Shown here: positions 15,425 to 46,610 of the stretch, in pieces | Layout: each line of letters starts with the position of its first letter | How positions within the stretch are numbered: position 1 is the stretch's first letter | IMG/VR virus record: IMGVR_UViG_3300032116_000277 | Coordinates: 1-53,218 of that record | Length of the DNA: 53,218 nucleotides | From: a virus | Taxonomy: Duplodnaviria > Caudoviricetes | Strand: one strand, 5' to 3' | Notes under the pieces: generated by a model | The model's input: the letters and a program-made list of their open reading frames with translations, nothing else | Told to the model about the DNA's origin: nothing | The model's database searches: none | Program-made: the position numbers and the translations under genes

Positions 15425-16845
15425 TGTGGCACCGTGCCCTTTATATCATAACATTGCTTGCCCTTACTTTGACTGCAAGAAGTCAGGTATTAACGTATAA
15501 CTTCACAGATCCTTGTACAAAGGTGGTGACTACGTTCAATATACCTGTAACGGGTACTACTACAATATACTTTCTAAATCGTACAGCCTCGTTTACTGCA
15601 GCAGATGTCAGTAGCGGGGCTTTTGCTGTTTGGGTAGATGCTACATATGCTGACTATAGAAAGATTTCACCCTGCGGTCAGCAATCCGGGCAGGTTACCC
15701 AGAATCAGATTACTAGTCAGATTATTGGTAACACAGTACAAAGTGTGGTGGGATCAATCATGAGCTCTGCACAGAGTCAGGCTACATCTTCTGTAGTCTC
15801 AAGTGCAACAGGAAGCTCAGTGTCATCTGGGGGAGGTGGCGTATCCAACGCTAGCTCAAAGGATAACAAGGACTCTAAATCTAATAACAATGGAAATACT
15901 TCTAATAGTTCTTCTAATTCTTCTAATACCAGTTCTAATAACCAATCAGGAGGCTCGTCAGGGTCTACTAGCTCTAGTCAAAATACTACTGGTACTGGTA
16001 GCTCTAGCGGGAGCAATAGTAGTAGCTCATCTTCATCTGACCAAAAGTCTTCTACAGAAGGGTCTCAAGAAGTTGCGGCTTCTACCACAATGAGTGCTGA
16101 TGCCTCATCAGATAAATCTGGAGGAGACAATAGTTCTTCTTCAGGAGGAGGAGGTAAATCAGGTAGTAAAGGTGGTGGTAAAGGCGGAGGGAATAACCCC
16201 ATACTAGTATCATCTGACTTTACTACGGCACAGAACTTGGATAAGACGTTTACGCCTATCCTGAATCTATCTATGAGTCAGTCATCACTGACTGGTAAGA
16301 CCAGTTGGGGAATGACTGGAATGATATGGTTTAACTTTAAGCAGTTTGCTCTTAGTGGTAAGTATACTAAAATGAGTGTAAACAAAAGTGGGAAGCTTAA
16401 GTATATATCCAACTTTGCACTGACTGCAGTTTACAGCTACGGAAATATCCTTGGCTTTATTGGGTACAGTGGTATTCTTAATGCTGGCAAGTTTGGGGTG
16501 ACCGGCTTTAATGTATCAGGTGCAGCAAGTGTAATAAGTGAAGATGATAATACATTCTTTAGTCCGTCTATTACTGCGTTTTACACTAAGCCTTTTTACC
16601 TAAATAAACGTAAGAGGTTAACTATATCACCTGAACTGTATATAATTTCTACTCCTCTGATATACTCAACAAAAGATAAAGTAACACAGAGTGATAGAAC
16701 TTTTAGTTTCTTTGCAGGATCTGGATTTGACTATCAGATAAGCAAGAAGTTTAAGTTTAACGTAAACTATAAGCTTAACGCTAGTACAAACAGAGAGTTT
16801 CCTATCCTGAGTTTCTTTTTGGTAGGAAGTAAAATCAACCTATGA
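15424..16845 (+). CDS. Secreted protein with a Ser/Gly/Asn-rich linker and C-terminal outer-membrane beta-barrel
   Basis: Signal peptide ARS-Q; long S/G/N low-complexity stretch; alternating amphipathic strands ending FFLVGSKINL. Confidence 0.6.
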   Translation: MWHRALYIITLLALTLTARSQVLTYNFTDPCTKVVTTFNIPVTGTTTIYFLNRTASFTAADVSSGAFAVWVDATYADYRKISPCGQQSGQVTQNQITSQIIGNTVQSVVGSIMSSAQSQATSSVVSSATGSSVSSGGGGVSNASSKDNKDSKSNNNGNTSNSSSNSSNTSSNNQSGGSSGSTSSSQNTTGTGSSSGSNSSSSSSSDQKSSTEGSQEVAASTTMSADASSDKSGGDNSSSSGGGGKSGSKGGGKGGGNNPILVSSDFTTAQNLDKTFTPILNLSMSQSSLTGKTSWGMTGMIWFNFKQFALSGKYTKMSVNKSGKLKYISNFALTAVYSYGNILGFIGYSGILNAGKFGVTGFNVSGAASVISEDDNTFFSPSITAFYTKPFYLNKRKRLTISPELYIISTPLIYSTKDKVTQSDRTFSFFAGSGFDYQISKKFKFNVNYKLNASTNREFPILSFFLVGSKINL

Positions 16846-31249: not shown

Positions 31250-31834
31250 TTAGTCCCACCAGTGGTTTAGTTTGTAATGCATGAGCTTCCAAAAGATACG
31301 CTCACACTTTTGTTGGTTGTAATCAGATACTCTAAAAGCTAGTTTTTCTGTATCTGCTACTTTTAGTTTATACTTCTTACGAAGTTTCTTGGCTGTACGT
31401 TTATACTTAGCCAGATAGTCTTCAAGATTGTCTTCTAGGATGGTATCTTCCATGGTGAGGTAATCACCTGTAGCATCAGCCGGTACGAACTCATATGATT
31501 TCTTTAGATAATCATACATTTCAAGTTCGTAATAGCTCTGCTTTATACGCTCTAGCAGATTAAGTGCTAGAGTAATGTCTTTATTTACAGCTTCTACGCC
31601 AACAAACCGGTTAGCTGTTACGAGTTCTTCTCTCATAAACTCTAACTTCTTCTGTAATAGGTCGGTAATAAAACTGTGGTCCCAATGACGGTCCCGGTAG
31701 ATAGTTGGCATCCATCTAATAATATTGTACAGTCCCTGAAAGAACTGTTTAATAAAGATTGGCACGTATCCGAGCCATTTGTTTCTGCCCCAGGCTGAGT
31801 CATCAGGTACTGGTAGTTGATGATACTGTTTCAT
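31250..31834 (-). CDS. Hypothetical protein (likely start MKQYHQ at 31834)
   Basis: IYRDRHWDHSFI..LL..KLE; ends WWD. Confidence 0.7.
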   Translation of the reverse strand: MKQYHQLPVPDDSAWGRNKWLGYVPIFIKQFFQGLYNIIRWMPTIYRDRHWDHSFITDLLQKKLEFMREELVTANRFVGVEAVNKDITLALNLLERIKQSYYELEMYDYLKKSYEFVPADATGDYLTMEDTILEDNLEDYLAKYKRTAKKLRKKYKLKVADTEKLAFRVSDYNQQKCERIFWKLMHYKLNHWWD

Positions 31835-31970
31835 CTGTACTGATTTGTTCTGTACTGCAAGTTTCACCTTGACAGCAGGGTTGGATATTGTTCTTACAAA
31901 CACTACATTGTATGTGTCCGTGAACATCTACTGGAATGTATGGATGGTTACATACGGGACATAGATTCAT
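31803..31970 (-). CDS. Small Cys/His-rich Zn-finger protein (55 aa)
   Basis: MNLCPVC...VHGHIQCSVC....PCCQGE. Confidence 0.6.
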   Translation of the reverse strand: MNLCPVCNHPYIPVDVHGHIQCSVCKNNIQPCCQGETCSTEQISTDETVSSTTST

Positions 31971-32080
31971 AAGCTAATTACTATTAGTATGATTATTGTA
32001 ATAACAAGACCAAGCATTGATATAAACGCAATAGTCTCATTTGTTTCCTGTTGATCAGGACGTCTACCTTGGTTATTCAT
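31967..32080 (-). CDS. Small membrane peptide (37 aa)
   Basis: MNNQGRRPDQQETNETIAFISMLGLVITIIILIVISL; ATGA-coupled to the next gene. Confidence 0.5.
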   Translation of the reverse strand: MNNQGRRPDQQETNETIAFISMLGLVITIIILIVISL

Positions 32081-32154
32081 AGGTATAGGATTTTAAAATA
32101 AAACCAGGGTGTAGAAACACCCCGGTAACGATTGCTTGCTTGCCATTAAGGCAG

Positions 32155-32198
32155 TAAAGATGAGAGGACTTGAACCTCTTGATATACCTATCATCTTT
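32155..32198 (-). ncRNA. tRNA-like minihelix element (acceptor stem plus T-arm only)
   Basis: AAAGAUG-AUAGGUAUAUCA-AGAGG-UUCAAGU-CCUCU-CAUCUUU-A. Confidence 0.55.
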
Positions 32199-32448
32199 AT
32201 TTAACACTCTTATTTTATCCAGCTTACAAGTGTTTTGGCTGTCCCCACAGGAGGCTGACTTTCCTCCACTGCTATTTTTTCTAAGGTGGGTTAGGAATAA
32301 GTATTTTAGTTTGACCCCAGGTTACCAACCTGCTGTTACTAAGTAACCGCCACTTGACCATATATGCAGCTAGCATACTTCTCATCGTCTAGATCCAGAC
32401 TATCCGGTAGCATATCCGGATCGTATCTTTTACTAGGTAATAAATTTA

Positions 32449-32604
32449 TTACCTGTCAATAATCACAAAATCTATACTCCATCTAAGCCACACTATTTCT
32501 ATAGACAGCATGCATAAGTCACCTTCAAAAAATCTATCGTGCATAACACGTAAAGTAGGTGTGATATAAGTGCTGTTATAGTTTTTAGATACTTGTAATT
32601 TCAT
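32449..32604 (-). CDS. Small hypothetical protein (51 aa)
   Basis: MKLQVSKNYNSTYITPTLRV...IEIVWLRWSIDFVIIDR. Confidence 0.5.
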   Translation of the reverse strand: MKLQVSKNYNSTYITPTLRVMHDRFFEGDLCMLSIEIVWLRWSIDFVIIDR

Positions 32605-32619
32605 ATAGAGAGTTTAAAA

Positions 32620-33210
32620 AGGTGGTATACTTGTGATGCATACCAGATCCCATCTGAATTGACGCCACAGATACGGTATGACGGCATCTAGTTAAAGTCT
32701 ATTAGCTAGACTGTTCATTAAAAGTTTTTAAAGTCTATCTGAGGGACTACCTTTGAAGGTTGCCATCAGACAGGCTACTAGGTTAAACAATGCTCGTGAA
32801 CCGGTTACATGGTTTTTGGGGTTCTTCACCTTAATACCAAGGAGTATGTAGTAGCGGTTTTATCTACGGTATACTCTTAACTTTACAGTACTGATTGAGT
32901 AACGACTTCGCGGTCACAGGAGGTTATCTTAGATAGGCTCCTCAGATCAGACTTTTTGATTATTGACTACCATAACAGGTCAATGCTGGCCAAAGGCCAC
33001 TTGTCTTATATGACGTTATTATGATCAGACAAAAAGTTTGGCTATTAGATAGACACTATACCTTGGTTTCAGTCAATAAAGCCTACTTTGATGGTACATA
33101 GAAAAGACTTAGACCATGGGGAGCACGTGCATATAGGCCAGCTCGTTTAGGTTTTGTTTGAGTTTGGTCAAACCCAAACTAAGTCTTAGCTGTGGTTATC
33201 TAATCAGCCA
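32620..33210 (-). ncRNA. Candidate large structured ncRNA
   Basis: No ORF of 60 aa or more; long-range complementary pairs GTCTATCT/AGATAGAC, ACCAAGG/CCTTGGT, ACTTTTTG/CAAAAAGT, AAGACTTAG/CTAAGTCTT. Strand inferred from flanking genes. Confidence 0.4.
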
Positions 33211-33212
33211 AT

Positions 33213-33512
33213 TTATTTTAGAACAACAGTAACCTTACTTAAACCACGTCCACGATTAATTCGTGATATGATCTGTTTAGTTTCTAGTTCTTTCAAAGAA
33301 CGTTTAACAGTAATAGGTGTGATGTTTAATTCTGAAGCCATCTTTAAAACACTGACAGTTAATTGGTTATTTATACTATCAGCAAAAGTGCACAGATAAG
33401 CATACACAGCCTTATCACGTATTTTTAAATTAGGATCTCTCATTACAGTACTGGTGCACTGACCAAACCCACCTTTTAATCTACTGTTCTGATATATCAT
33501 ATTGTAGAACAA
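33213..33512 (-). CDS. Winged-HTH protein (HTH_36-like)
   Basis: LKIRDKAVYAYLC...SVLKMASELNITPITVKRSLKELE...ISR. Confidence 0.75.
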   Translation of the reverse strand: MFYNMIYQNSRLKGGFGQCTSTVMRDPNLKIRDKAVYAYLCTFADSINNQLTVSVLKMASELNITPITVKRSLKELETKQIISRINRGRGLSKVTVVLK

Positions 33513-33544
33513 TATTAGAGAACTTTTTTGACTTCTACAAATAA

Positions 33545-33900
33545 ATGTACCAGGAAAGTCCCACTAGGGGACCCCCGGTACTTACCAACCCTAATCCTCA
33601 TTAGTTAAATAGTAAAAAGAGCCGGCTTGACGTACCGGCTGTGCTGAGTTTCCTACATCTGAGCAGCTAAGCTGCCAGGTTCAGTATTGTATAACTACTT
33701 GCTTGGCGTATTCTGGCTAACATGAACCTAGTTCAATGCAGTATACAAGCGTTTGTTGCCCCCTTTACGACAGGCGTTACTACGTACACAGTAAATGCGG
33801 TAGCTTTTTCCTCCTGTATCAGCTCATGGTTGATCAGTATCCTAGTACCAGGGTTAGGGTAAGAGCGTGCCCACGCTAGCTTGTGCTAGCCTCACCGAGT
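33545..33900 (-). ncRNA. Candidate structured ncRNA ending in a terminator-like hairpin
   Basis: GC-richer, hairpin-dense intergenic sequence; AGCCGG-uacgucaag-CCGGCU followed by a U-run on the minus strand. Confidence 0.35.
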
Positions 33901-34227
33901 TTAATTATGTTTACCAAACTTAAGTACAAGATTAGTAACACCGTTTACTTTTCTAATCTCCCAGTTATTAATAGGGATAATAAACTCACCTTTTCTAAAA
34001 GTTGAGCTTTTGTAATTAGAATCAGTAGTTGGATTACTTACTGTTTTTCCAAGTTTAGATCTTTGATCGTATACATACTGTCTTAAACTACCAACAGTTC
34101 TGTTAAGTTCTTTAGCAGTTTTTTCAAGATAGTCTTGAGTAAGTTTAATTTGACCTTGAATAGCAGGTTTCAGAGTGTTGTACTCTGATTCAGAATAAAA
34201 GCGGATTGTTCTTTTAGCTTTTTTCAT
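33901..34227 (-). CDS. Hypothetical protein, possibly HTH
   Basis: LEKTAKELNRTVGSLRQYVY. Confidence 0.6.
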   Translation of the reverse strand: MKKAKRTIRFYSESEYNTLKPAIQGQIKLTQDYLEKTAKELNRTVGSLRQYVYDQRSKLGKTVSNPTTDSNYKSSTFRKGEFIIPINNWEIRKVNGVTNLVLKFGKHN

Positions 34228-34246
34228 TTGGATTGGATTTTATTTT

Positions 34247-34837
34247 TTAAAAATTGGTTTGATCAGTAATACTAATCATTGGCACAGTGTCTTTGTATAT
34301 ATAACACTGGTATTCCTTTGTTACTGTTTTAAGAACATAGGATTTGTACTTTGAATACTTGTCACAGTGACTATACATAAGTTTAAGTTCAGGATGCAGA
34401 GTATTATCTATTAGTTTGGCAAACTGTTTTATAGTTTTATCAAGGCCAATTGGTCTTATAGATAATGTAAAACATACATTCTTAGTAAACTTAGGTATAT
34501 GTAAGCGTGCGTTATTAATACTGCAGCAGAAGTCAAGATCGTAAAAAGTATTTGGTTGATTAGCGGTGGCATGATAAACATCTGAGTATCTTATTTCACT
34601 ATCTATTACAGGCATATAGTGATCTAGTTGCAAAGTAAGCTTAGACATATCGTATTCATATATCTCTGCACTTTTAACTTTATATGACCGTAATAAAAGT
34701 AGATAATCAGTGATGTTTGGTCCTCCAAGACCTACAACCTTGTTTAGTTTATTCCATTTAAGCTTTTCGTATATGCTGGCTTGTACTGCACGTTTGTTTA
34801 TTGACTGAGTATAATCAGTTTTATGTGAGTAAGGCAT
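34247..34837 (-). CDS. Putative SAM-dependent methyltransferase-like fold protein
   Basis: VVGLGGP, EIYEYD, FYDLDFC spacing resembles class I MTase motifs; weak. Confidence 0.35.
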   Translation of the reverse strand: MPYSHKTDYTQSINKRAVQASIYEKLKWNKLNKVVGLGGPNITDYLLLLRSYKVKSAEIYEYDMSKLTLQLDHYMPVIDSEIRYSDVYHATANQPNTFYDLDFCCSINNARLHIPKFTKNVCFTLSIRPIGLDKTIKQFAKLIDNTLHPELKLMYSHCDKYSKYKSYVLKTVTKEYQCYIYKDTVPMISITDQTNF

Positions 34838-35113
34838 AGAATGAATATTGGGTTAGAAAAGTTACGGTTTAAAGCTTACCGTAAACTGCCCATTGAATGA
34901 AGTCCAACGGGTCTAAGTCCTTTAATAAAGGTCACATGTGCACAGATAGTTTACCATGCATCATGCTTACCCGAAACTCTTTACACCATTCTGAGTATGG
35001 TGGTGGGTTTTCGGGATAGGTGGATTTAAACGTGCTGATACACAGCTTTTGGTTTTCACAGGAGGCTTTGGATATACCGAGCCAAGTAAGTAGTGTTTTC
35101 ATATAAGGATAAA

Positions 35114-35581
35114 TTAAGATTCCATGAGTTCCATGATTTCAATTGCTCTCTCATAGTTTTCAGCCCATACTTCAGCTCCCTTTATAACCCACATTTTTCT
35201 TCCAGTTGTTATATCAATCTGAACAGGAGGAGGATTTAGCTCATGACCAATTCCCCACTCACTCTCTGGTCTAAGAATACATACTGGTATCCATACAAAC
35301 CCTGATTGAACACCTCGGTTTGTTGGGTATACTATATTATTCTCAGTTAAAAAGTTGAGCATACCTTCATTTTCAGAGTAATCTTTTATTAGAATTTCAT
35401 CCTCATCTAATAATACATCTGGAAGATTTACGCTTGCTATAGCGTAAGGAAAGCCATAATCTTCAGAGTTCTCATCTGCATATAGCAGTTCAAGAGAAGG
35501 TCTTCCGTTATTATACTTTCTTTTGCGTATTGACACTGGGCAGGGGTCACTGCCTTCAAGTGTCACAAAAAATTTCTGCAT
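35114..35581 (-). CDS. DUF4313-like protein
   Basis: PYAIASVNL...IKDYSENEGMLNFL..N.I......SGFV. Confidence 0.6.
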   Translation of the reverse strand: MQKFFVTLEGSDPCPVSIRKRKYNNGRPSLELLYADENSEDYGFPYAIASVNLPDVLLDEDEILIKDYSENEGMLNFLTENNIVYPTNRGVQSGFVWIPVCILRPESEWGIGHELNPPPVQIDITTGRKMWVIKGAEVWAENYERAIEIMELMES

Positions 35582-36653
35582 GTGTAATGTTTTTTACAGT
35601 TTTAGGATAATTATTTATATCATTTAACCATTGCTTTACTTCATGTAAAATGCTAGAATCAGGACGTTGATTGAACTTACCCATTAGCTGATTGAAATGT
35701 AGACCTGTAGTTTTATCATAAGCTAAACCAAGAGTAAGACCGTATGTAGAGCCATCATTAACATGAAAGACTACAAAGTTTTCATACTTTATAGCATTCC
35801 AATAGTTCGTATAAACACAGTGCTTCATCACTTTACCTTCTTTGAATACATCATATTGATTATCAAGAAGTGTATACCTATTGTCATTATACTTTTGAAA
35901 TTTCTTTAACCAGTTAAGAGGTTCTCTAGACATACTATCAGATTCTAATTCCATTAGTTCTTCTGTCCATTTCTTGTGCTCTTCTTCCATACGTCTTACA
36001 GACCAGTTAAAATCAATTTTACGATCAAGTATAAGAGCTTGCTGCATTAGATCATTTATTGAACCATGCTGAGAAAAACTATCAGCAGTACTTTGAACAA
36101 AATCTAAATAGTGATCCAAGTTCTTTGCAACAGATATACCTTCTAGCAACTGAGTTTTAGTTACATTATTTTCTACAGCATGTTTAAGATAGTTAGCAGA
36201 AGCATTTTTAACTCTGTATAGTTTAAGAATGGTAGTAAACAAATCATGCGGATTAGTAATCTTTCCTACAATTATTTTACCCATAATAGAGTTAGTAATA
36301 AACTGCAGATACTTTTCCTTAACCCATTCTTTACCTAGCTTAGAAAGAACATCGTGCAAGTATGGTATAGTGTGAAGTTTACCACCAAACCAAACATTCA
36401 TTTTACCTTTTGGATCTACGGTAAAACCATAATGACTGTTCTTCTTCATAAAATATTCTTTACCCCGACTTATTTTGTACACTGTATATGAATAGTGTAC
36501 TGTTCCGTCTTCACGGATTAATATGTTTCCACATGGAAAGTGGTTACCTTGAAACTGTCGGTGATAGAGTATATTTTTTGCTATGGACTGTGGCATAGCT
36601 AAGAAGTCTTTTACTTCTTGATTAATTTCTTGTATAGCAATCGTTTTTTCCAT
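35556..36653 (-). CDS. PcfJ-like domain protein
   Basis: C-terminal EGKVMKHCVYTNY...Q..GKFN; likely start MEKTIA at 36653. Confidence 0.7.
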   Translation of the reverse strand: MEKTIAIQEINQEVKDFLAMPQSIAKNILYHRQFQGNHFPCGNILIREDGTVHYSYTVYKISRGKEYFMKKNSHYGFTVDPKGKMNVWFGGKLHTIPYLHDVLSKLGKEWVKEKYLQFITNSIMGKIIVGKITNPHDLFTTILKLYRVKNASANYLKHAVENNVTKTQLLEGISVAKNLDHYLDFVQSTADSFSQHGSINDLMQQALILDRKIDFNWSVRRMEEEHKKWTEELMELESDSMSREPLNWLKKFQKYNDNRYTLLDNQYDVFKEGKVMKHCVYTNYWNAIKYENFVVFHVNDGSTYGLTLGLAYDKTTGLHFNQLMGKFNQRPDSSILHEVKQWLNDINNYPKTVKNITHAEIFCDT

Positions 36654-36728
36654 ATAGGATTTATTATTAATTAATAAAAAACCCGGTAGCCGAAGCCACC
36701 GGGTAATAACCATTAAACCAACACCATA

Positions 36729-36884
36729 TTACTGAGGTACTCTTGTAATCAGCTTGCTTCTTCCTTTGCATCCGTAGCCTTGTGTGCTACAACTACATAA
36801 ACCAGCAAGAAGTGCTAGAAATACAATAGTGATAAGAAGATATTTTGCAGCAGTTTCATTTTGCTGACGTTGATTTTCTTTCAT
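36729..36884 (-). CDS. Small putative lipoprotein (51 aa)
   Basis: YLLITIVFLALLAGLCSCSTQGYGCKGR: hydrophobic stretch plus an SC lipobox. Confidence 0.55.
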   Translation of the reverse strand: MKENQRQQNETAAKYLLITIVFLALLAGLCSCSTQGYGCKGRSKLITRVPQ

Positions 36885-36893
36885 GACTTATAA

Positions 36894-37469
36894 TTATAAA
36901 CGTTTATTAATAAGTTTAGATCTACATATGTTGCAGAAGTAGGTACCTTCTTGATCAACTTGTTTGATTGTACCTTTTGCAGAACTCATTAAGCATTTAG
37001 AGTCATTAGTACAATGATCAAGACCAAAGTTGTGACCTACTTCATGTATTGAAACTTTATTAATACGCTCAAGAACTAGTTTTTTAGAAAAGCCTTTTAA
37101 TCTATAAACAGATACAACGCATATGTTACTATTGCGTTTTGCAAGCCCAAATATTCCCCACTCAGGTTGACCGGGTGTTTTAGTATAGCAAACATCTTTT
37201 TCAGTAATAAGTATCGTATGATTAGATGTTTCATACTTATCAAGCATTTTTTGAGCATCATATCTACTACTTCTTATTTTAGCATGTATATCTTTAGTTC
37301 CACTTATAGGCGTATTAACTATACATCTGATACTATAAAAAGATTCTAATGAAGACTTGATCGTATTTATGTAAGCTTTGTCTACATTATCTATAGGTTG
37401 TATGTATATAACTGACTTAGAATCTATGTGAAAAAGATGAATAATAAATAAAAACAGTAGAGTTTTCAT
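36894..37469 (-). CDS. Archaemetzincin-like zinc metalloprotease (peptidase M54)
   Basis: HEVGHNFGLDHC....CLM (HExxHxxGxxH, Cys, Met-turn), FCNIC; hydrophobic N-terminus. Confidence 0.85.
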   Translation of the reverse strand: MKTLLFLFIIHLFHIDSKSVIYIQPIDNVDKAYINTIKSSLESFYSIRCIVNTPISGTKDIHAKIRSSRYDAQKMLDKYETSNHTILITEKDVCYTKTPGQPEWGIFGLAKRNSNICVVSVYRLKGFSKKLVLERINKVSIHEVGHNFGLDHCTNDSKCLMSSAKGTIKQVDQEGTYFCNICRSKLINKRL

Positions 37470-37576
37470 ATGGTACTATTTTAATTATCAAATATCACTG
37501 GAGGCATGTATAACATAGAGATATAGTTTTAAATTAATAATATGTTATTAAGACATACCCCCAGTGAGAACTTAAA

Positions 37577-37897
37577 CTAAGGCAAATATTGAAACACAAT
37601 AACTCCTATAAAACTTAGTATACAAACAGACAGCATTACTGCCATTTTATATACTCCATCCTTTTTAAAAGAAGGACGTTTATAGAAAGGATCTGTTCTA
37701 ACATCTAAGTAAAAACCAAAGCTTACAATACCAGTACCCATAAAAAATGCATTAACGAAGTCTTTATCAGTAAGCTGAATAGTTATTGTGTGATTACCAA
37801 CAACACTAACTGATATTAAAGCGTACACTGCATAAATAAGACAAACTAGTCCTAAAATAAAACTAGAGTTTTTTAAAAGTTTAAGAGTAGGTTCCAT
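37577..37897 (-). CDS. Membrane protein (3 TM)
   Basis: Three hydrophobic segments. Confidence 0.6.
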   Translation of the reverse strand: MEPTLKLLKNSSFILGLVCLIYAVYALISVSVVGNHTITIQLTDKDFVNAFFMGTGIVSFGFYLDVRTDPFYKRPSFKKDGVYKMAVMLSVCILSFIGVIVFQYLP

Positions 37898-37972
37898 AAA
37901 AGGATTTTAAAATTTTAATAAATAAAGTGGTTAGCCCCTTGGGTCAATGACTTACGGGGCTTAACCAACCAT

Positions 37973-38182
37973 TCAAGCTTTAGATAATTTTTCTTCTAGA
38001 TCTATACATACAACTAAAGATGGAATCCAACCAAGAACTACCATAAAAAAGCCTATACCACCGCTAGTGGCGGCCTCTCGGAAAGTCCCTGATTCCATGC
38101 ATAAATATGTAAGTGTAGATAAGCATAACCAGGTAATTAGTAATGTACCTAGAAAGCCAAGCATAAGAATTGTTCCTTTCAT
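37973..38182 (-). CDS. Small membrane protein (2 TM)
   Basis: Hydrophobic segments, GWIP. Confidence 0.6.
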   Translation of the reverse strand: MKGTILMLGFLGTLLITWLCLSTLTYLCMESGTFREAATSGGIGFFMVVLGWIPSLVVCIDLEEKLSKA

Positions 38183-38379
38183 AATGCGTTTCTTTTTTGT
38201 GAACGATTTGGTTTGTAAGGAAAAGCTCTGCGGTAATCAGATTCTAATGTGTCGTAAATGTCAGACCATTGTTTTTTCAAGCCATCAGTACGAAATGTCC
38301 ATACAGATACAAGAACTTCCCATAACAAGAATGGGATTGCAAGAAGACTTAATCCTAAGATTTTTAATAAGTACTTCAT
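38179..38379 (-). CDS. Small membrane protein
   Basis: N-terminal hydrophobic helix; ATGA-coupled to the next gene. Confidence 0.55.
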   Translation of the reverse strand: MKYLLKILGLSLLAIPFLLWEVLVSVWTFRTDGLKKQWSDIYDTLESDYRRAFPYKPNRSQKRNAL

Positions 38380-38408
38380 TTTGTTTGAGGTTGGTTAAAA
38401 AATATTTT

Positions 38409-38509
38409 TCTCCCTCTGCACTCAGTTGTAAGGCCCGCCCATAGAATTAACTATACGCTTGGATTCTTACAACTGCTAGCCCTTGGGAAGCTAGGATGGT
38501 GCATTAAGA
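38409..38509 (-). ncRNA. Twister ribozyme (type P1, with P5)
   Basis: UCU-UAA-UGCA-CC-auc-CUAGC-UUCCCAAGG-GCUAG-CAGUUGUAAG...CUUACAACUG-ag-UGCA-GAGGG-AGA. P2, P4, P5 and both pseudoknots (CCC/GGG, CC/GG) can form; predicted cleavage between U38506 and A38505. Confidence 0.8.
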
Positions 38510-39580
38510 TTCTGACAGGCTGAGTGTTGACCTACAGATACTATCGTTTTCATAGAGTTACCTCTACTTATACACACGGTGGATTACTCCATCGTAGATA
38601 GCAGTACCAGTGTTTAACCTCACTCCTGAGGGATCTTTCTCGCGGGTTACATAGACTTTGATTTCTACCAAGCGGACTGGATGGTCCTAAGCTACATCCC
38701 TGCAGCTACTTAGATATACTTTCTCTATCTCACAGCGTTCCTTGCGGTACTGGCTGTGCTGTCATATTACAGACAGATAAGGTACTTTGACCCAGAGAAC
38801 TAACAGACTGTTGCGTTAATTAATTAGTATTAAATAACAATAGCATAATCCAGGACGTGCCGTTAGAGTATAGCTCACTCCCTTTTGAGGAATGCGTACT
38901 ATAACGCCCCAGTGCAGGTTACCAGCCCACGGTATATTCAAGACCCTGTTACCAGGCCTTAAGTATACTGGATAACGCAGTAAGTCTCTTGGTAAAGACC
39001 TTCCACATGTATCCTACAGGTTTCATCCTATTGCGGTTTCCCGCTCAACAGTGTATGCTGACACTGTAGTTACTCAGGGGTTTCCCCACTGCAACTGTTA
39101 CCCGTTTGCTTACTCGGCCGGTATTACTACCGTAGATGTGCTCTTGTTAAGACACACCTTTTATACCTGTCACCAGGTTTATCCTAACGACCATAAGCGG
39201 CCGTGTCAATTGGTAGCTGATCAAGTCAGCTTAACGCACACACCGTGAGTATTTAAACTCTGAAGGTTTGACATTGTGTGCTTTGCACTATGGTTCTCAC
39301 TCGCAAAGAGAAGACCGAAGCCAACTCACCCATAGCGGATATACATTCAGGTATATCAGCCTACATAGACGCACGTGCTGTCTATTGCCCCCATCAACTT
39401 AACGGGTTAGTGCCCCATATACAACGCTCGGTTCGTCAACCAAGCCTTCTGTGACACGAGAAGCAACGTAAGTGAACCCAGTGGCCTAAGCCAGCCAGGT
39501 TCACCAATATTATCAGGTATCTCCAGTGATACCTATAACATAGTAATACTATATAGTACTGGTATGTTAGGGTATCTGTA
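38510..39580 (-). ncRNA. Candidate large (about 1 kb) structured ncRNA(s) rich in GNRA hairpins
   Basis: Minus-strand UAGAG-GUAA-CUCUA, GGA-GUAA-UCC, CCUG-GUAA-CAGG, GCGG-GAAA-CCGC, GGG-GAAA-CCC, CGGUA-GUAA-UACCG; no credible ORF. Confidence 0.55.
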
Positions 39581-39586
39581 GAGATA

Positions 39587-39814
39587 CTATTCAGTATCAT
39601 CATCAGCTTCTACAAGAGAGTAGAGGTGAGACCAGGCGTCAATAAGATCTGACATCTCAGACTTAAGTTCCTGCCACCGTGTGTAATCTTTGCCGGGTGG
39701 TATCTCATTCCAAGAACCGTTAAAACGGTATAGCTTGGTAATCACCTGAATTACTTCAGCACATTCTTCGGCTAAGGTGAGTGCTGGGTCACCTTGATTC
39801 TTATACAGAGCCAT
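39587..39814 (-). CDS. MazG-like NTP pyrophosphohydrolase
   Basis: LAEECAEVIQVITK...LKSEMSDL (ExxE / ExxD). Confidence 0.75.
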   Translation of the reverse strand: MALYKNQGDPALTLAEECAEVIQVITKLYRFNGSWNEIPPGKDYTRWQELKSEMSDLIDAWSHLYSLVEADDDTE

Positions 39815-39829
39815 ATGATTAGGTATTGG

Positions 39830-40630
39830 TTACAAAGAAGAAAGAGTGGTTTCACTTCGCATTATATCCACTCTTTTTACCCCGCTTCTAGGGTAGATAC
39901 GTCTTAGTATCATCAGAAGGCTGTTTTGCATTACGCTGGATGACCTACAAGCCCAGCAACCCTTTACAGGGAACTTAGGTTAAAGACATAAACTCAGTGT
40001 ATTCTATTTTGCAGGACACTGAAAGAACTGAATGGTTTCAAAGGCTTACCAATAACCCTAAATAGTAGCATATATGTCTGCGGTATATGCTAGACCGCTG
40101 TGTCTGTAAGGCCTACCTAGTCAACACAATTCTAGGTAGTTTGGTACAGCTCCTGCCCATACATAGCTGTTTAATGGTAAACCCCATATATAACCGTAAG
40201 ACTAGGTAAAGGGCAGAACACTTCTGATACATCAGACAATATGAGTGTTAACTGTAGATCCTCAATAGCCTAGTCTCCAGGGTTATAGCCATCTTATCCG
40301 CGGCCAAAAGTTCTACGGAATAGGTGGTAGAAAAAGATAGAGAAAGGTGTGACTGCTTGACTACCACAGACAAACAGTCACACAAGTACTTGTGAATCAG
40401 CGTTTTATTCCTAGGGATTCCGGATAACGCTGTTAGAACCGGTTAAGACCTTACGCACTACGTAAGTCTTCTGCTAAACTCATCAGAGCAGCTATGCCTG
40501 TGACGAGTACAACAGTTCCACTGGCGGTGAAGACCAGCATATTTTTAGAGTGATTAACTCCTACGGTATATAATCAATCCCTACCAGGCTGTAAATGCTA
40601 AGACCTGAGTAAATGGGATTGAAAAGGATA
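39830..40630 (-). ncRNA. Candidate structured ncRNA(s)
   Basis: Closing pair ATCAGAAG (about 39912) / CTTCTGAT (about 40221) encloses hairpins CTACCTAG/CTAGGTAG, TAGCATATA/TATATGCTA and CCCU-GUAA-AGGG; further hairpins continue to 40620. Confidence 0.45.
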
Positions 40631-40633
40631 CGC

Positions 40634-40660
40634 AAAAAAAAGGGGACACTTGTCCCCTTT
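40634..40660. terminator. Intrinsic terminator downstream of the 40677 gene
   Basis: A-run followed by GGGGACA-ct-TGTCCCC-TTT. Confidence 0.7.
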
Positions 40661-40676
40661 GGGTGGATACGGAAGA

Positions 40677-40982
40677 TTATTTCTTCCAGTATCCGCCCTG
40701 TTCGGCATCCGCGGGTATCAACCCGTGATAGCCGAACTCGTCAGCCGTTTCCGCTATGCGGACTTTCGGCCTGACGCGGAAGACACCTTCAGAGGTTTCT
40801 TCCACAACGTCTTCCATAGTGGAAGACCAGAAGGAAATTTGTTTGCCGTTGTCACATGTGACACGGAAACCAATATTTCCGGATTTGGAAGGATCTCCGA
40901 TCTCCAAATCTGCAAGCTTGAAAGTCAGTCCGTTTACGGCTGAGTCAAGCTTGGCTTGAACGAGTTTGTGTAACGAGTTCAT
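40677..40982 (-). CDS. Hypothetical protein, first gene of the minus-strand arm
   Basis: Likely start MNSLHKL at 40982; visibly GC/CpG-richer than the rest of the window. Confidence 0.55.
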   Translation of the reverse strand: MNSLHKLVQAKLDSAVNGLTFKLADLEIGDPSKSGNIGFRVTCDNGKQISFWSSTMEDVVEETSEGVFRVRPKVRIAETADEFGYHGLIPADAEQGGYWKK

Positions 40983-41256
40983 GGCCAATGAATTGGGTTT
41001 TACGGGGGTTACCCCGGCCCAATTTATTGGTGGGGTAGTTTGTATGGGCGGGCCATCACCCCCTCCTGTATACAAGATTTAGGGTACCGTAGTTAGGCTA
41101 GTTAAGTCAGTTAAGCAGTTAGGAGGCGGGGGTATAGTTTAACTAGAAAGTACCCGGGGGTACTATTTACTGTATTAGGTACTATTTGGTCACTTAGTTA
41201 CCTGAAAGTAATCATGGGTACTCTGTCTGTATAAGATTACCTTGGGTCCGTTCTAA

Positions 41257-41592
41257 ATGATAACCAAGGAAATACATGATATAATAAAATTTAAAAGATC
41301 TATCCTGCACAATAAGTGGGGCATAGAGTGTATTATTACCCTTGGAGACGGGGATCCCCTTAGATTTAATGAGATCCATGATAACCTACCCGGCTGCTCA
41401 GCCAAAGTATTAACCCAGGCATTAAAGAAGCTAGAAGCCCAGCATTTACTAGTTAGAACGTCTTATAACGAGATACCCCCAAGAGTTACCTACAAACTGT
41501 CTAATAACGGACTCTTAGTTCTTAAGTATGTAGAGGACTCTATACAGTTTTTTCGTGAGGCATTTATGCTCTACAATAAGTATGAAATTTAG
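41257..41592 (+). CDS. HxlR-family winged-helix transcriptional regulator
   Basis: KW...I...L.....RFNEI...LPG.SAKVLTQ.LK.LE...L..R..Y.EIPPRV.Y.LS..G. Confidence 0.88.
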   Translation: MITKEIHDIIKFKRSILHNKWGIECIITLGDGDPLRFNEIHDNLPGCSAKVLTQALKKLEAQHLLVRTSYNEIPPRVTYKLSNNGLLVLKYVEDSIQFFREAFMLYNKYEI

Positions 41593-41765
41593 TGATTCAC
41601 CAACTTCTACATTATTTGTTACTAAACGGTAACTTGTAGTTAAGGCACTGCACAAACTAAACCACCTCTTACTGCGTTATCTTTGTCGCTTTTTCACATC
41701 TGTTGAAAAGTCAGTAACTAATATGTAGAACTATGAAGTAAATTTGGAGAGTTTAAACTTTTTAG

Positions 41766-41782
41766 GTATATTATAGTGTAGA
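41766..41782 (+). promoter_or_regulatory. Putative phage late promoter GTATATTATAGTGTAGA
   Basis: Matches the 7308 and 51946 copies; precedes the packaging operon. Confidence 0.55.
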
Positions 41783-41802
41783 CCTAATCAAAAACCGACC
41801 TT

Positions 41803-45800: not shown

Positions 45801-46447
45801 CAATAGTATCTATAAGAGAATATAATAAAAGAATAGAGTCTGTTCTTTCTGACTCATATAAAGTTGTACTAACCGATGAGGAGTATAACTATAGAAAAGA
45901 ATATTCTGTAGACTGGTCAGATAAAAAACGAGACGCAGGTCCTCAGTACATTATTGATGACAACTACTTAGAGAAAAGAAGTACTAATGGGCACATGGGG
46001 CAAAGAGCTGTAGAGAAGTTTTTAGGTATAGAATTTACAGATCCTGATACTTCATATGATATAAAAAAGAATATCCCTGATTTATTACCTGCAGGATTAC
46101 ATATTGGAGTAAAGACGCATAGAGTAGCTAATCCTCCAATGCTTGATTTTATACCGGATCAAGTATATGAGAAGCTTGATCCTGTAAAACAAAAGAAAGC
46201 TCGTTATCCTCAGATTATTGTAACAAAGGATAATAACTGTGAAAAGACCTTTTATATACTTGGTGTTTATGCTCCTAAAGTTCTTTGGCATAAAGACTAT
46301 GTAGATAAAGGTCTGATATATGATGATAAACTTTTAGAGAAGGGAACTAAGATTCCTTTTATTGGTGTACATAAACGTGTACCATTTAAAAACAAGGAAG
46401 AACTAGTTTCTATCATAGGTCCTACATGGACTTCTACTGTAAGGTGA
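45797..46447 (+). CDS. Hypothetical protein, possible restriction-endonuclease fold
   Basis: GQRAVEKFLG...PDLL....IGVKT resembles PD-(D/E)xK; stop codon overlaps the tRNA. Confidence 0.45.
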   Translation: MTIVSIREYNKRIESVLSDSYKVVLTDEEYNYRKEYSVDWSDKKRDAGPQYIIDDNYLEKRSTNGHMGQRAVEKFLGIEFTDPDTSYDIKKNIPDLLPAGLHIGVKTHRVANPPMLDFIPDQVYEKLDPVKQKKARYPQIIVTKDNNCEKTFYILGVYAPKVLWHKDYVDKGLIYDDKLLEKGTKIPFIGVHKRVPFKNKEELVSIIGPTWTSTVR

Positions 46448-46527
46448 CGGAACTGGCAGACGTGCCTCCCTGTCTCGGAGGTGGATAGGGTTTCTTATCC
46501 TTGGAGGTTCAAATCCTCCCCTTACAG
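46438..46527 (+). tRNA. Atypical tRNA, anticodon GTC (Asp), long variable arm
   Basis: Acceptor TGTAAGG/CCTTACA+G; anticodon arm CCTCC-CTGTCTC-GGAGG; variable arm GGATAGG-GTTT-CTTATCC; T arm GGAGG-TTCAAAT-CCTCC. Confidence 0.75.
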
Positions 46528-46536
46528 CAAAAATAC

Positions 46537-46610
46537 CGCGGGGTGGTGTAACGGTAGCACACTGGGCTCATAACCCAGGAATCCTAGTTCAACTCTAGGC
46601 TCCGCAACCA
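46537..46610 (+). tRNA. tRNA-fMet (CAT), initiator type
   Basis: C1:A72 mismatch, CTGGG-CTCATAA-CCCAG with three G:C pairs, encoded CCA. Confidence 0.9.

Follow-up and report, generated by a model that had tools for sequence, protein, structure and literature searches.

What is encoded in the gene-poor stretch between positions 38510 and 40630 of the virus record IMGVR_UViG_3300032116_000277, and how would its product be released from the transcript? The window, by which we mean the whole 53,218-base IMG/VR record, is gene-poor on the minus strand in this stretch. A preliminary description made from the sequence had proposed an early polycistron there, processed into several large non-coding RNAs. 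Our analysis points to a cage-type RNA of the GOLLD family that lies in a mosaic RNA island on the minus strand and whose 3′ end is predicted to be released by a twister-class cutter. We assign this reading as a whole a probability of about 0.72. The view that most of the stretch codes for RNA on the minus strand, and that it contains one very large structured RNA, is upheld. In the proposed mechanism, self-cleavage by a twister-like element would make the GOLLD 3′ end and leave an 11-nucleotide tail with a cyclic phosphate. The predicted cut, placed between U38506 and A38505 by analogy with twister, would part the GOLLD RNA from the message for small proteins that lies downstream. In related phages the same task seems to fall to a standard twister, a pistol ribozyme, a transfer RNA (tRNA, cut by ribonuclease P) or a terminator.

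A divergent GOLLD-family RNA

The GOLLD class was reportedly first described by Weinberg et al. in 2009. GOLLD RNAs are among the largest non-coding RNAs of bacteria and phages and their function is unknown, according to passages of a cryo-electron microscopy paper, which also divide the RNA into a 3′ region conserved in all members, a 5′ region of about 420 nucleotides with lower conservation and a disordered linker (PMC12286853). In the same passages env-38 GOLLD, solved by cryo-electron microscopy, is an RNA-only cage of 14 copies (Kretsch et al. 2025, PMC12286853). The preliminary description had proposed a comparison with Rfam models including GOLLD, and this comparison explains most of the stretch. 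It was found that the GOLLD model RF02032 matches positions 38912-38517 of the minus strand with 88.6 bits and an E-value of 1.9e-22, over model positions 1-416 of 416. The model covers only the conserved 3′ half of GOLLD, so that the 3′ half alone of the window RNA is matched. The parts of the RNA and the element that follows it are given below.

39465-38506, minus strand: GOLLD-family RNA, about 960 nucleotides including the tail to the predicted cut (from Rfam and relatives)
39465-39284, minus strand: 5′ extension, aligned with the related contigs L286, L251 and L294
39283-38913, minus strand: 5′ domain, 370 nucleotides, aligned in four relatives, with covarying stems
38912-38517, minus strand: 3′ domain, the part modelled by Rfam, with an AU-rich linker near 38852-38812
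38517 to the predicted cut, minus strand: 11-nucleotide tail after the last GOLLD position
38509-38409, minus strand: twister-like element, 100 nucleotides, starting 8 nucleotides after the last GOLLD position 38517

RF02032 is covered from end to end by the cmscan alignment. Most helices form in it, and an insertion stands in for one small hairpin. The conserved 3′ domain of GOLLD is thus present with its helices, and compensatory changes are seen among four relatives. Four full-length sequences (the window, L003, and the relatives L132 and L151 found with nhmmer) were aligned with MAFFT and folded together with RNAalifold, which gave 203 pairs; in 71 of the 203 pairing is kept through two-sided changes, and these lie in both halves of the RNA. 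Both the Rfam and the RNAalifold structures contain several long-range helices. The closest related contig, L003, whose 132-amino-acid protein is 77% identical to that of the window, shows 90.7% identity over window positions 39283-38482 and scores 112.5 bits with RF02032. The identity of L132 to the window RNA is 70%. The stems of the 5′ extension covary among the window, L286, L251 and L294. L003 is without this extension, and the RNA measures about 780 nucleotides without it and about 960 with it. On these sequence grounds the window RNA is a divergent member of the GOLLD family.

It resembles the known members in several respects. Its conserved 3′ domain can be aligned in full with RF02032, an AU-rich variable linker lies in the 3′ domain as in known members, and a large, GNRA-rich, structured 5′ region is present in a phage context. 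At about 960 nucleotides the RNA is longer than 800, and its large structured 5′ region is the less conserved one. Terminase and portal genes, together with the IMG/VR record itself, provide the phage context. There are also differences. The window RNA and its clade score under the curated cut-off, and the RNA carries an added 5′ module of about 180 nucleotides that only some relatives have in common. It has no adjacent tRNA: the tRNA-Asp and tRNA-Met genes at 46438-46610 do not adjoin it and, as the nearest tRNA genes, lie about 7.5 kilobases away in the other arm. Instead, a twister-like element stands directly 3′ of the RNA. By analogy with env-38 GOLLD, we predict for the window RNA a homo-oligomeric cage resembling the 14-mer.

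The preliminary description had pointed to at least seven GNRA hairpins specific to the minus strand and listed seven. GNRA hairpins with a stem of at least 4 pairs were counted by script in 38510-40630, with 500 dinucleotide shuffles as control. The minus strand had nine and the plus strand had none; the shuffles had a mean of 1.47 and a maximum of 7, so that not one of the 500 came to 9. Of the seven listed, six were recovered at their positions:

38552-38567, 38580-38591, 38945-38956, 39033-39044, 39119-39132 and 39960-39971, minus strand: GNRA hairpins recovered by the script

The seventh (39078-39087) is present with only 3 pairs. An additional hit at 39746-39759 falls within a MazG-like gene. 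Most of the GNRA hairpins of the stretch sit in the GOLLD-family RNA of about 960 nucleotides. The folding signal of 38507-39480 is specific to the minus strand, where the fold reaches -330 kcal/mol (z -5.25, equalled by none of 20 shuffles), as compared to -269 kcal/mol (z -1.95) on the plus strand.

At the Rfam gathering thresholds the window yields only a tRNA. It should be noted here that the 150-bit gathering score of RF02032 is a threshold set by curators and not a structural feature. A scan of viral contigs with conserved 3′-terminal words gave 103 new loci, of which 33 contain relatives by nhmmer. A RF02032 match was found in 26 of 34 contigs of relatives, at 45.7-132 bits, and all these matches are full-length (1-416). 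Many of the 34 contigs are phage genomes of about 100-130 kilobases that are rated 90-100% complete. The Rfam GOLLD model gave no match in 50 contigs picked for the twister-like element (0 of 50), a test limited by the search filter or by the reach of the model; the L132 contig is among these 50 and holds a clear GOLLD relative by blastn and nhmmer. Judged by these alignments, the window RNA belongs to a sizeable GOLLD clade that is excluded by the curated threshold. Within 31500-41800, searched at E ≤ 10, and across the entire window, searched at E ≤ 1, there was no match to ROOL, group I and group II introns, ribonuclease P, hammerhead and others. The remaining Rfam matches (SNORD79, mir-988, U6atac, SAM-II and BSnc120) were weak and chance-like and were rejected.

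The twister-like element at the 3′ end

The twister ribozyme is reportedly due to Roth et al. 2014. In passages of a review, helices P1, P2 and P4 are essential, P3 and P5 are optional and a conserved adenine follows the cut (PMC5408937). The env22 twister construct, in passages of another paper, begins with U-A-A-U, followed by P2, by a C-rich loop with AAG at its end and by GAAGGG as the 3′ strand, and P1 is negligible for its cleavage (PMC6101554). The element at 38509-38409 is laid out as a UAA junction, a P2 of 5 pairs, a P4 of 5 pairs with the loop UUCCCAAG, a variable stem and GAGGG. A pattern made from it matches at least 120 stretches of viral contigs, and among the distinct pattern hits in the fetched loci the full layout is present in 90 of 115.

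From these, 83 distinct copies were parsed. P4 is fully paired in 81 of the 83, with 2-5 pair types per position, a count that is unbiased. The count for P2 is biased, since only copies with 4 or more of the 5 pairs had been taken in; three of the five P2 pairs covary, namely pairs 3-5 (CG/UA, AU/GC and CG/UA). The junction is UAA in 79 copies, CAA in 3 and AAA in 1. The loop UUCCCAAG is found in 83 of 83 copies and the 3′ strand GAGGG(R) in 81, and the inserted stem varies in length from 30 to 176 nucleotides. The CCC of the loop could pair with the 3′ GGG as pseudoknot T1; both are invariant and so beyond a covariation test.

The order of the parts is that of a type P1 twister: an N-A-A junction, P2, P4 with a C-rich loop that has AAG at its end, the P2 3′ strand and GA(R)GG. 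The optional extra stem on the 3′ side is a further likeness, and the possible T1 between loop and 3′ strand would be another. The covariation of P2 and P4 and the conserved L1 and L4 nucleotides, with an adenine 3′ of the predicted cut, agree with what marks a twister in the published passages. On the other hand, the element has no P3, carries a long variable inserted stem, has a weak or absent P1 and is not detected by Rfam. The preliminary description had spoken of a twister. A real, conserved element does lie at 38509-38409, yet it goes undetected by every Rfam twister model. Since the same model detects a twister in another GOLLD locus (G123, below), the element is named twister-like here and is not filed as a member of the class. 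By its likeness to twister, and by the cutters that take the same place in relatives (below), it is probably a self-cleaving ribozyme of the twister type without P3.

The 3′ junction in other GOLLD loci

To which elements the 3′ junction is given over elsewhere was seen by classifying 30 distinct GOLLD-like 3′ ends. An element of the twister type lies within about 10-22 nucleotides in 8 of the 30, including one remnant (L282, which is the L003 contig) and one standard twister. A pistol occupies the junction in 2 of 30 and a tRNA in another 2, and in 1 the end of the contig cuts it off. The standard twister, in G123, matches the Rfam twister-P1 model with 52.9 bits and an E-value of 2e-12 (below the model cut-off) and starts 10 nucleotides after the GOLLD. 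In G116 and G117 a pistol of 56.5 bits, above the cut-off, starts 6 nucleotides after the GOLLD. A pistol of 33.9 bits lies directly 3′ of the GOLLD-like RNA in L132 and L249, and one lies about 280 nucleotides downstream in G118 and G119. tRNAs called by ARAGORN start 9-12 nucleotides after the GOLLD-like RNA in L256, L252 and L299. The exchange of one cutter for another at the same junction speaks for processing there.

It has been described, in passages of Perreault et al. 2011 (PMC3088659), that self-cleaving ribozymes flank genes in phage and prophage transcripts. The present loci are similar to these in that ribozymes of interchangeable classes stand between transcript units and would cut up a long RNA. 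They differ in that the window and its relatives would release a giant non-coding RNA and not a messenger RNA, and in that tRNAs or terminators fill the same slot in other GOLLD genomes.

Some further observations were made at these loci. In L229 (G123:C1:14591-16750) three Rfam twister-P1 matches fall within about 2.2 kilobases. Two of these twisters, at 15833-15920 and 16691-16750, bracket the GOLLD, and seven tRNA genes then follow within about 6 kilobases. In L287 and L308 a variant of the twister-like element, with P2 UGUAC/GUACA, lies about 110-260 nucleotides 5′ of the GOLLD-like RNA; the usual form lies 3′, and the GOLLD-like RNA is thus flanked on both sides by twister-like elements in these two loci. 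The tRNAs named above (L256 3450-3520, L252 622-692 and L299 6565-6639) are of the ARAGORN types tRNA-Asn(ATT) and tRNA-His(ATG). It is unusual for the first anticodon position to hold an unmodified A. These ATT and ATG tRNAs behind GOLLD-like RNAs may serve in processing, as tRNA-like handles, instead of in decoding.

RNA libraries

Six metatranscriptome runs contain 19-36% of the sampled words of the stretch. Contigs from four of these runs, which come from four studies, were mapped onto the window. They cover 38531-39265, the longest with 715 nucleotides (38531-39242). The GOLLD part is therefore present in RNA libraries. In run X15 the word depth of the GOLLD contigs is 235-775 and that of the contigs with the downstream open reading frames (ORFs), the MazG-like gene and M1, a conserved motif treated below, is 7-27; depths of contigs reflect expression poorly, and RNA libraries may also contain DNA. 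Insertions and deletions among the contigs fall at 38826-38847, within the AU-rich linker. At 39229 and 39262 the contigs pass into dissimilar sequence, which points to relatives with different flanks. One X15 contig covers 39881-40308 and with it a 21-nucleotide box, an insert and M1. No contig from the four runs lies on 38411-38530, 39331-39417 or 40375-40635, gaps that carry no weight.

The upstream half of the island

Upstream of the GOLLD RNA and the MazG-like gene the features of the island are as follows.

40660-40639, minus strand: hairpin resembling an intrinsic terminator, 9 pairs and a U run, ending the unit of a 132-amino-acid ORF and forming the upstream limit of the island
40540-40451, minus strand: hydrophobic ORF of 29 amino acids (MLVFTASGTVVLVTGIAALMSLAEDLRSA), from the ORF listing and homologues
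40383-40329, minus strand: hairpin with a 9-pair stem (40383-40375 with 40355-40347) and a U-rich tail
40302-40282, minus strand: 21-nucleotide box closing the small-ORF cassette, exact only in the window, L003 and L154, with a near match in L148
40281-40061, minus strand: insert of about 220 nucleotides found only in the window, a gap in L003, with predicted hairpins
40060-39878, minus strand: M1, a conserved structured RNA of about 180 nucleotides with three covarying hairpins and near-invariant joining strands
39895-39878, minus strand: fourth hairpin of M1, seen by eye and misaligned in the model alignment
39874-39834, minus strand: M2, a hairpin with a 7-pair stem, a conserved 18-nucleotide loop and a U-rich run

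M1 is the second conserved RNA of the island. A core model, R1, was built from 9 sequences and matches the window at 39982-39871 with 111.5 bits. It gave 10 matches in 100 viral sources and, with a metagenome scan added, 29 matches, of which 23 are distinct. In the M1 alignment, which was fitted to the model and so favours structure, pairing is seen in 96.8% of cells, and changes on both sides are found in 11 of 14 pairs. The covariation score is 0.558 as compared to 0.193 after shuffling (0 of 500 reach it), and controls with the alignment slid are 31-43% paired. The joining strands and a 13-nucleotide loop are almost invariant. No Rfam family matched M1 at E ≤ 10. As far as sequence comparison goes, M1 is a conserved RNA fold absent from Rfam. 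Its length comes to about 430 nucleotides if the window-only insert is included, and the thermodynamic signal of 39834-40308 is weak, with a z of -1.62 and 6 of 100 shuffles folding equally well. The insert itself had no blastn match among all fetched loci. Extra pairings within M1 (a long-range helix, pseudoknots between loop and strand, and the fourth hairpin) were considered and set aside; a column scan of the 23 sequences supports only the three modelled helices.

M2 is common to L003, L089, L115 and L256, and in L089 the arms differ and still pair. We infer from its form that M2 would be a terminator-like end of the M1 unit. As to the neighbours of M1, a twister-like element lies directly 3′ of it in L006 and in L086/L320, in L089 and L090 M1 stands a few hundred bases behind such an element, and in L256 a GOLLD-like RNA lies about 400 nucleotides downstream. 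As a separate observation, the L006 contig has a hatchet ribozyme at 564-698 (82.4 bits, above the cut-off), about 750 nucleotides upstream of M1, and also a MazG-like gene.

The 29-amino-acid ORF has homologues in L003 (86% identity) and L154 (66%), with 18 invariant columns, and a copy was seen by eye in L148. Between the window and L003 the DNA differences in this ORF are, by eye, mainly synonymous or conservative. The peptide ends in LAE(D/E)LRSA. The hairpin at 40383-40329 is the probable terminator of this ORF. It was missed by our terminator scan, which gave 8 sites against 1.8 expected, the strongest being 40660-40639, a site kept in L003. In L154 and L148 a different strong hairpin with a U-rich tail stands at the place of 40383-40329. 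The cassette of ORF, hairpin and box recurs in four contigs (the window, L003, L154 and L148), and what follows the box differs: the insert in the window, M1 in L003 and the twister-like element in L154. The gene for the 29-amino-acid peptide and M1 would thus sit in separate upstream units, each closed by a terminator-like hairpin.

Alternative explanations

Several results weigh against a GOLLD cage RNA released by a twister-class cutter. The RF02032 score of 88.6 bits falls short of the gathering cut-off of 150, none of the 34 related contigs reaches that value, and L132 and its twin L249, which are clear relatives, give no Rfam GOLLD match at all. No promoter or ribozyme marking the 5′ end of the RNA was found. 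No Rfam twister model (RF03160 and RF02684, with the rest of Rfam 15) matched in the window, a search of a 151-nucleotide piece with the element at E ≤ 10 likewise gave no twister, and among relatives there was none in 5 contigs, in 49 element-bearing contigs or, at E ≤ 1, in 20 loci. In the window P1 consists of 3 pairs (UCU/AGA), and by a simple test a contiguous pair at the junction is missing from 27 of 83 copies. L003 keeps only the first third of the element and an intact GOLLD, from which it follows that the ribozyme would be dispensable. At the junction, 17 of the 30 ends are without a recognised processing element, several of them with hairpins or U runs. The contigs from the RNA libraries reveal neither strand nor true ends.

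The first alternative is the one advanced in the preliminary description, namely a single long early transcript, polycistronic and self-cutting, that yields several large non-coding RNAs. All the parts do lie on one strand with short gaps, and a twister-like element stands at the GOLLD 3′ end. In relatives M1 is found directly before (L006, L086/L320) or a few hundred bases behind (L089, L090) a twister-like element, GOLLD is bracketed by twister-type elements in G123, L287 and L308, and a hatchet occurs in L006. However, the window has a single ribozyme-like element, and just two RNA units are supported, one of them large. Two protein genes and three terminator-like hairpins (40660-40639, 40383-40329 and 39874-39834) interrupt the supposed transcript, so that separate transcription units are at least as likely as one polycistron. 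We consider the long polycistron unlikely. What was to be an array of several large RNAs of unknown function thus comes down to one GOLLD RNA, of a known class, and one motif of about 180 nucleotides. Self-processing survives as probable at one place, the GOLLD 3′ junction, with only one ribozyme-like element in or beside the stretch.

It could also be that the sequence at 38509-38409 is inactive as a ribozyme and has a conserved structural or regulatory role as a stabiliser, a protein-binding site or a small mobile RNA or DNA element, the GOLLD RNA ending in some other way. That the Rfam twister models score nothing, that P1 is weak and that L003 keeps its GOLLD with a mere remnant of the element would all suit such a role. 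The very high sequence conservation among copies, together with a stem that varies freely from 30 to 176 nucleotides, could fit a spreading element. But junction, P2, P4, loop and 3′ strand come in the order of a proven twister and P1 is negligible for env22 activity, both according to passages of PMC6101554; the helices covary and the loops are invariant; and at the same junction in other GOLLD loci there are a twister detected by Rfam and pistols. We consider an inactive element unlikely. A separate family that shares only the 3′ module with GOLLD and need not form cages, which could be argued from the 26 Rfam hits of the clade all lying below the cut-off, from the relatives without a hit and from a 5′ part of 550 nucleotides, extra module included, as compared to 420 in env-38 (passages of PMC12286853), is quite improbable in view of the alignment of the whole 416-position model at an E-value of 1e-22 or better.

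The ribozyme or tRNA that often stands at the GOLLD 3′ end would give native ends for structural and functional work and hints at the importance of being released from the transcript. Rfam 15 misses the twister-like subclass (at least 120 stretches of viral contigs) as well as M1 (23 distinct sequences), and GOLLD relatives lie below the cut-off in 26 of the 34 contigs tested. A literature search, to which supplements did not belong, found no publication linking GOLLD with self-cleaving ribozymes, and the passages of PMC5737381 draw no such link. More tentatively, and with the odds rather on the other side, a large lake-phage GOLLD clade could be matured by interchangeable 3′ cutters (a P3-less twister subclass, pistol, standard twister, and tRNA with ribonuclease P), with M1 perhaps as a partner or cargo of the cage. 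In that case a cage-forming RNA would need a precisely released end, and the window would offer a compact natural GOLLD with its own cutter for studying how cages are made and what they contain.

Genome setting and gene content

The window has a completeness of 41% by CheckV. From about 46.4 kilobases onward the plus strand carries the terminase and portal genes and two tRNA genes, and the minus strand below 31 kilobases carries helicases and ATPases. The genes in and around the stretch, with one hairpin, are listed here.

41257-41592, plus strand: HxlR-type regulator, diverging from the 132-amino-acid ORF at about 41.2 kilobases
41075-40677, minus strand: 132-amino-acid ORF, the partner of the HxlR-type regulator at this divergence
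39814-39587, minus strand: MazG-like small protein of 75 amino acids (Pfam MazG, E 0.009, below cut-off; PHROG 4856, NTP pyrophosphohydrolase, E 4e-5)
39584-39515, minus strand: long hairpin directly 3′ of the MazG-like stop codon (minimum free energy fold, in the window and L003)
38379-38179, minus strand: next downstream ORF after the RNA-coding stretch

The divergent pair at about 41.2 kilobases bears out the placing of the stretch at the head of the leftward arm. According to the ORF listing, credible minus-strand coding between 40677 and 38379 consists of the MazG-like gene and the 29-amino-acid ORF. The stretch is thus poor in genes, as had been noted, and the statement that MazG is the only one had overlooked the ORF at 40540-40451. 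The G+C content of the stretch is 0.41-0.45, as compared to about 0.30-0.40 in the adjacent kilobases. The DNA runs that contain the stretch are labelled freshwater or lake metagenome, with three exceptions labelled fungus metagenome. INPHARED phages gave no blastn match to 38400-40700.

Relatives of the MazG-like protein are encoded by 342 of 600 candidate stretches of viral contigs. As a marker of GOLLD the gene was rejected: among 50 contigs that carry a related gene, 2 had an Rfam GOLLD match, and one of these two matches lies more than 100 kilobases from the gene. The hairpin at 39584-39515, at which the transcript may be processed or terminated, has similar ones in L154 and L100. A GC-rich hairpin on the minus strand that is found only in the window (39472-39505) stands between this hairpin and the GOLLD 5′ extension. 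ARAGORN called no tRNA at either hairpin; one or the other may be what the preliminary description called a tRNA mimic.

The tRNA-Asp(GTC) and tRNA-Met(CAT) genes at 46438-46610 on the plus strand stand just upstream of the large terminase gene, in the arm opposite GOLLD. Farther down the minus strand, among the other segments that the preliminary description had taken for RNA-coding, the ORF-poor pieces 32204-32363, 33397-33910 and 34848-34922 gave no Rfam match at E ≤ 1. They have blastn relatives of 72-86% identity in the unrelated contigs L142, L100, L256, L119 and L210, and may hold conserved non-coding modules.

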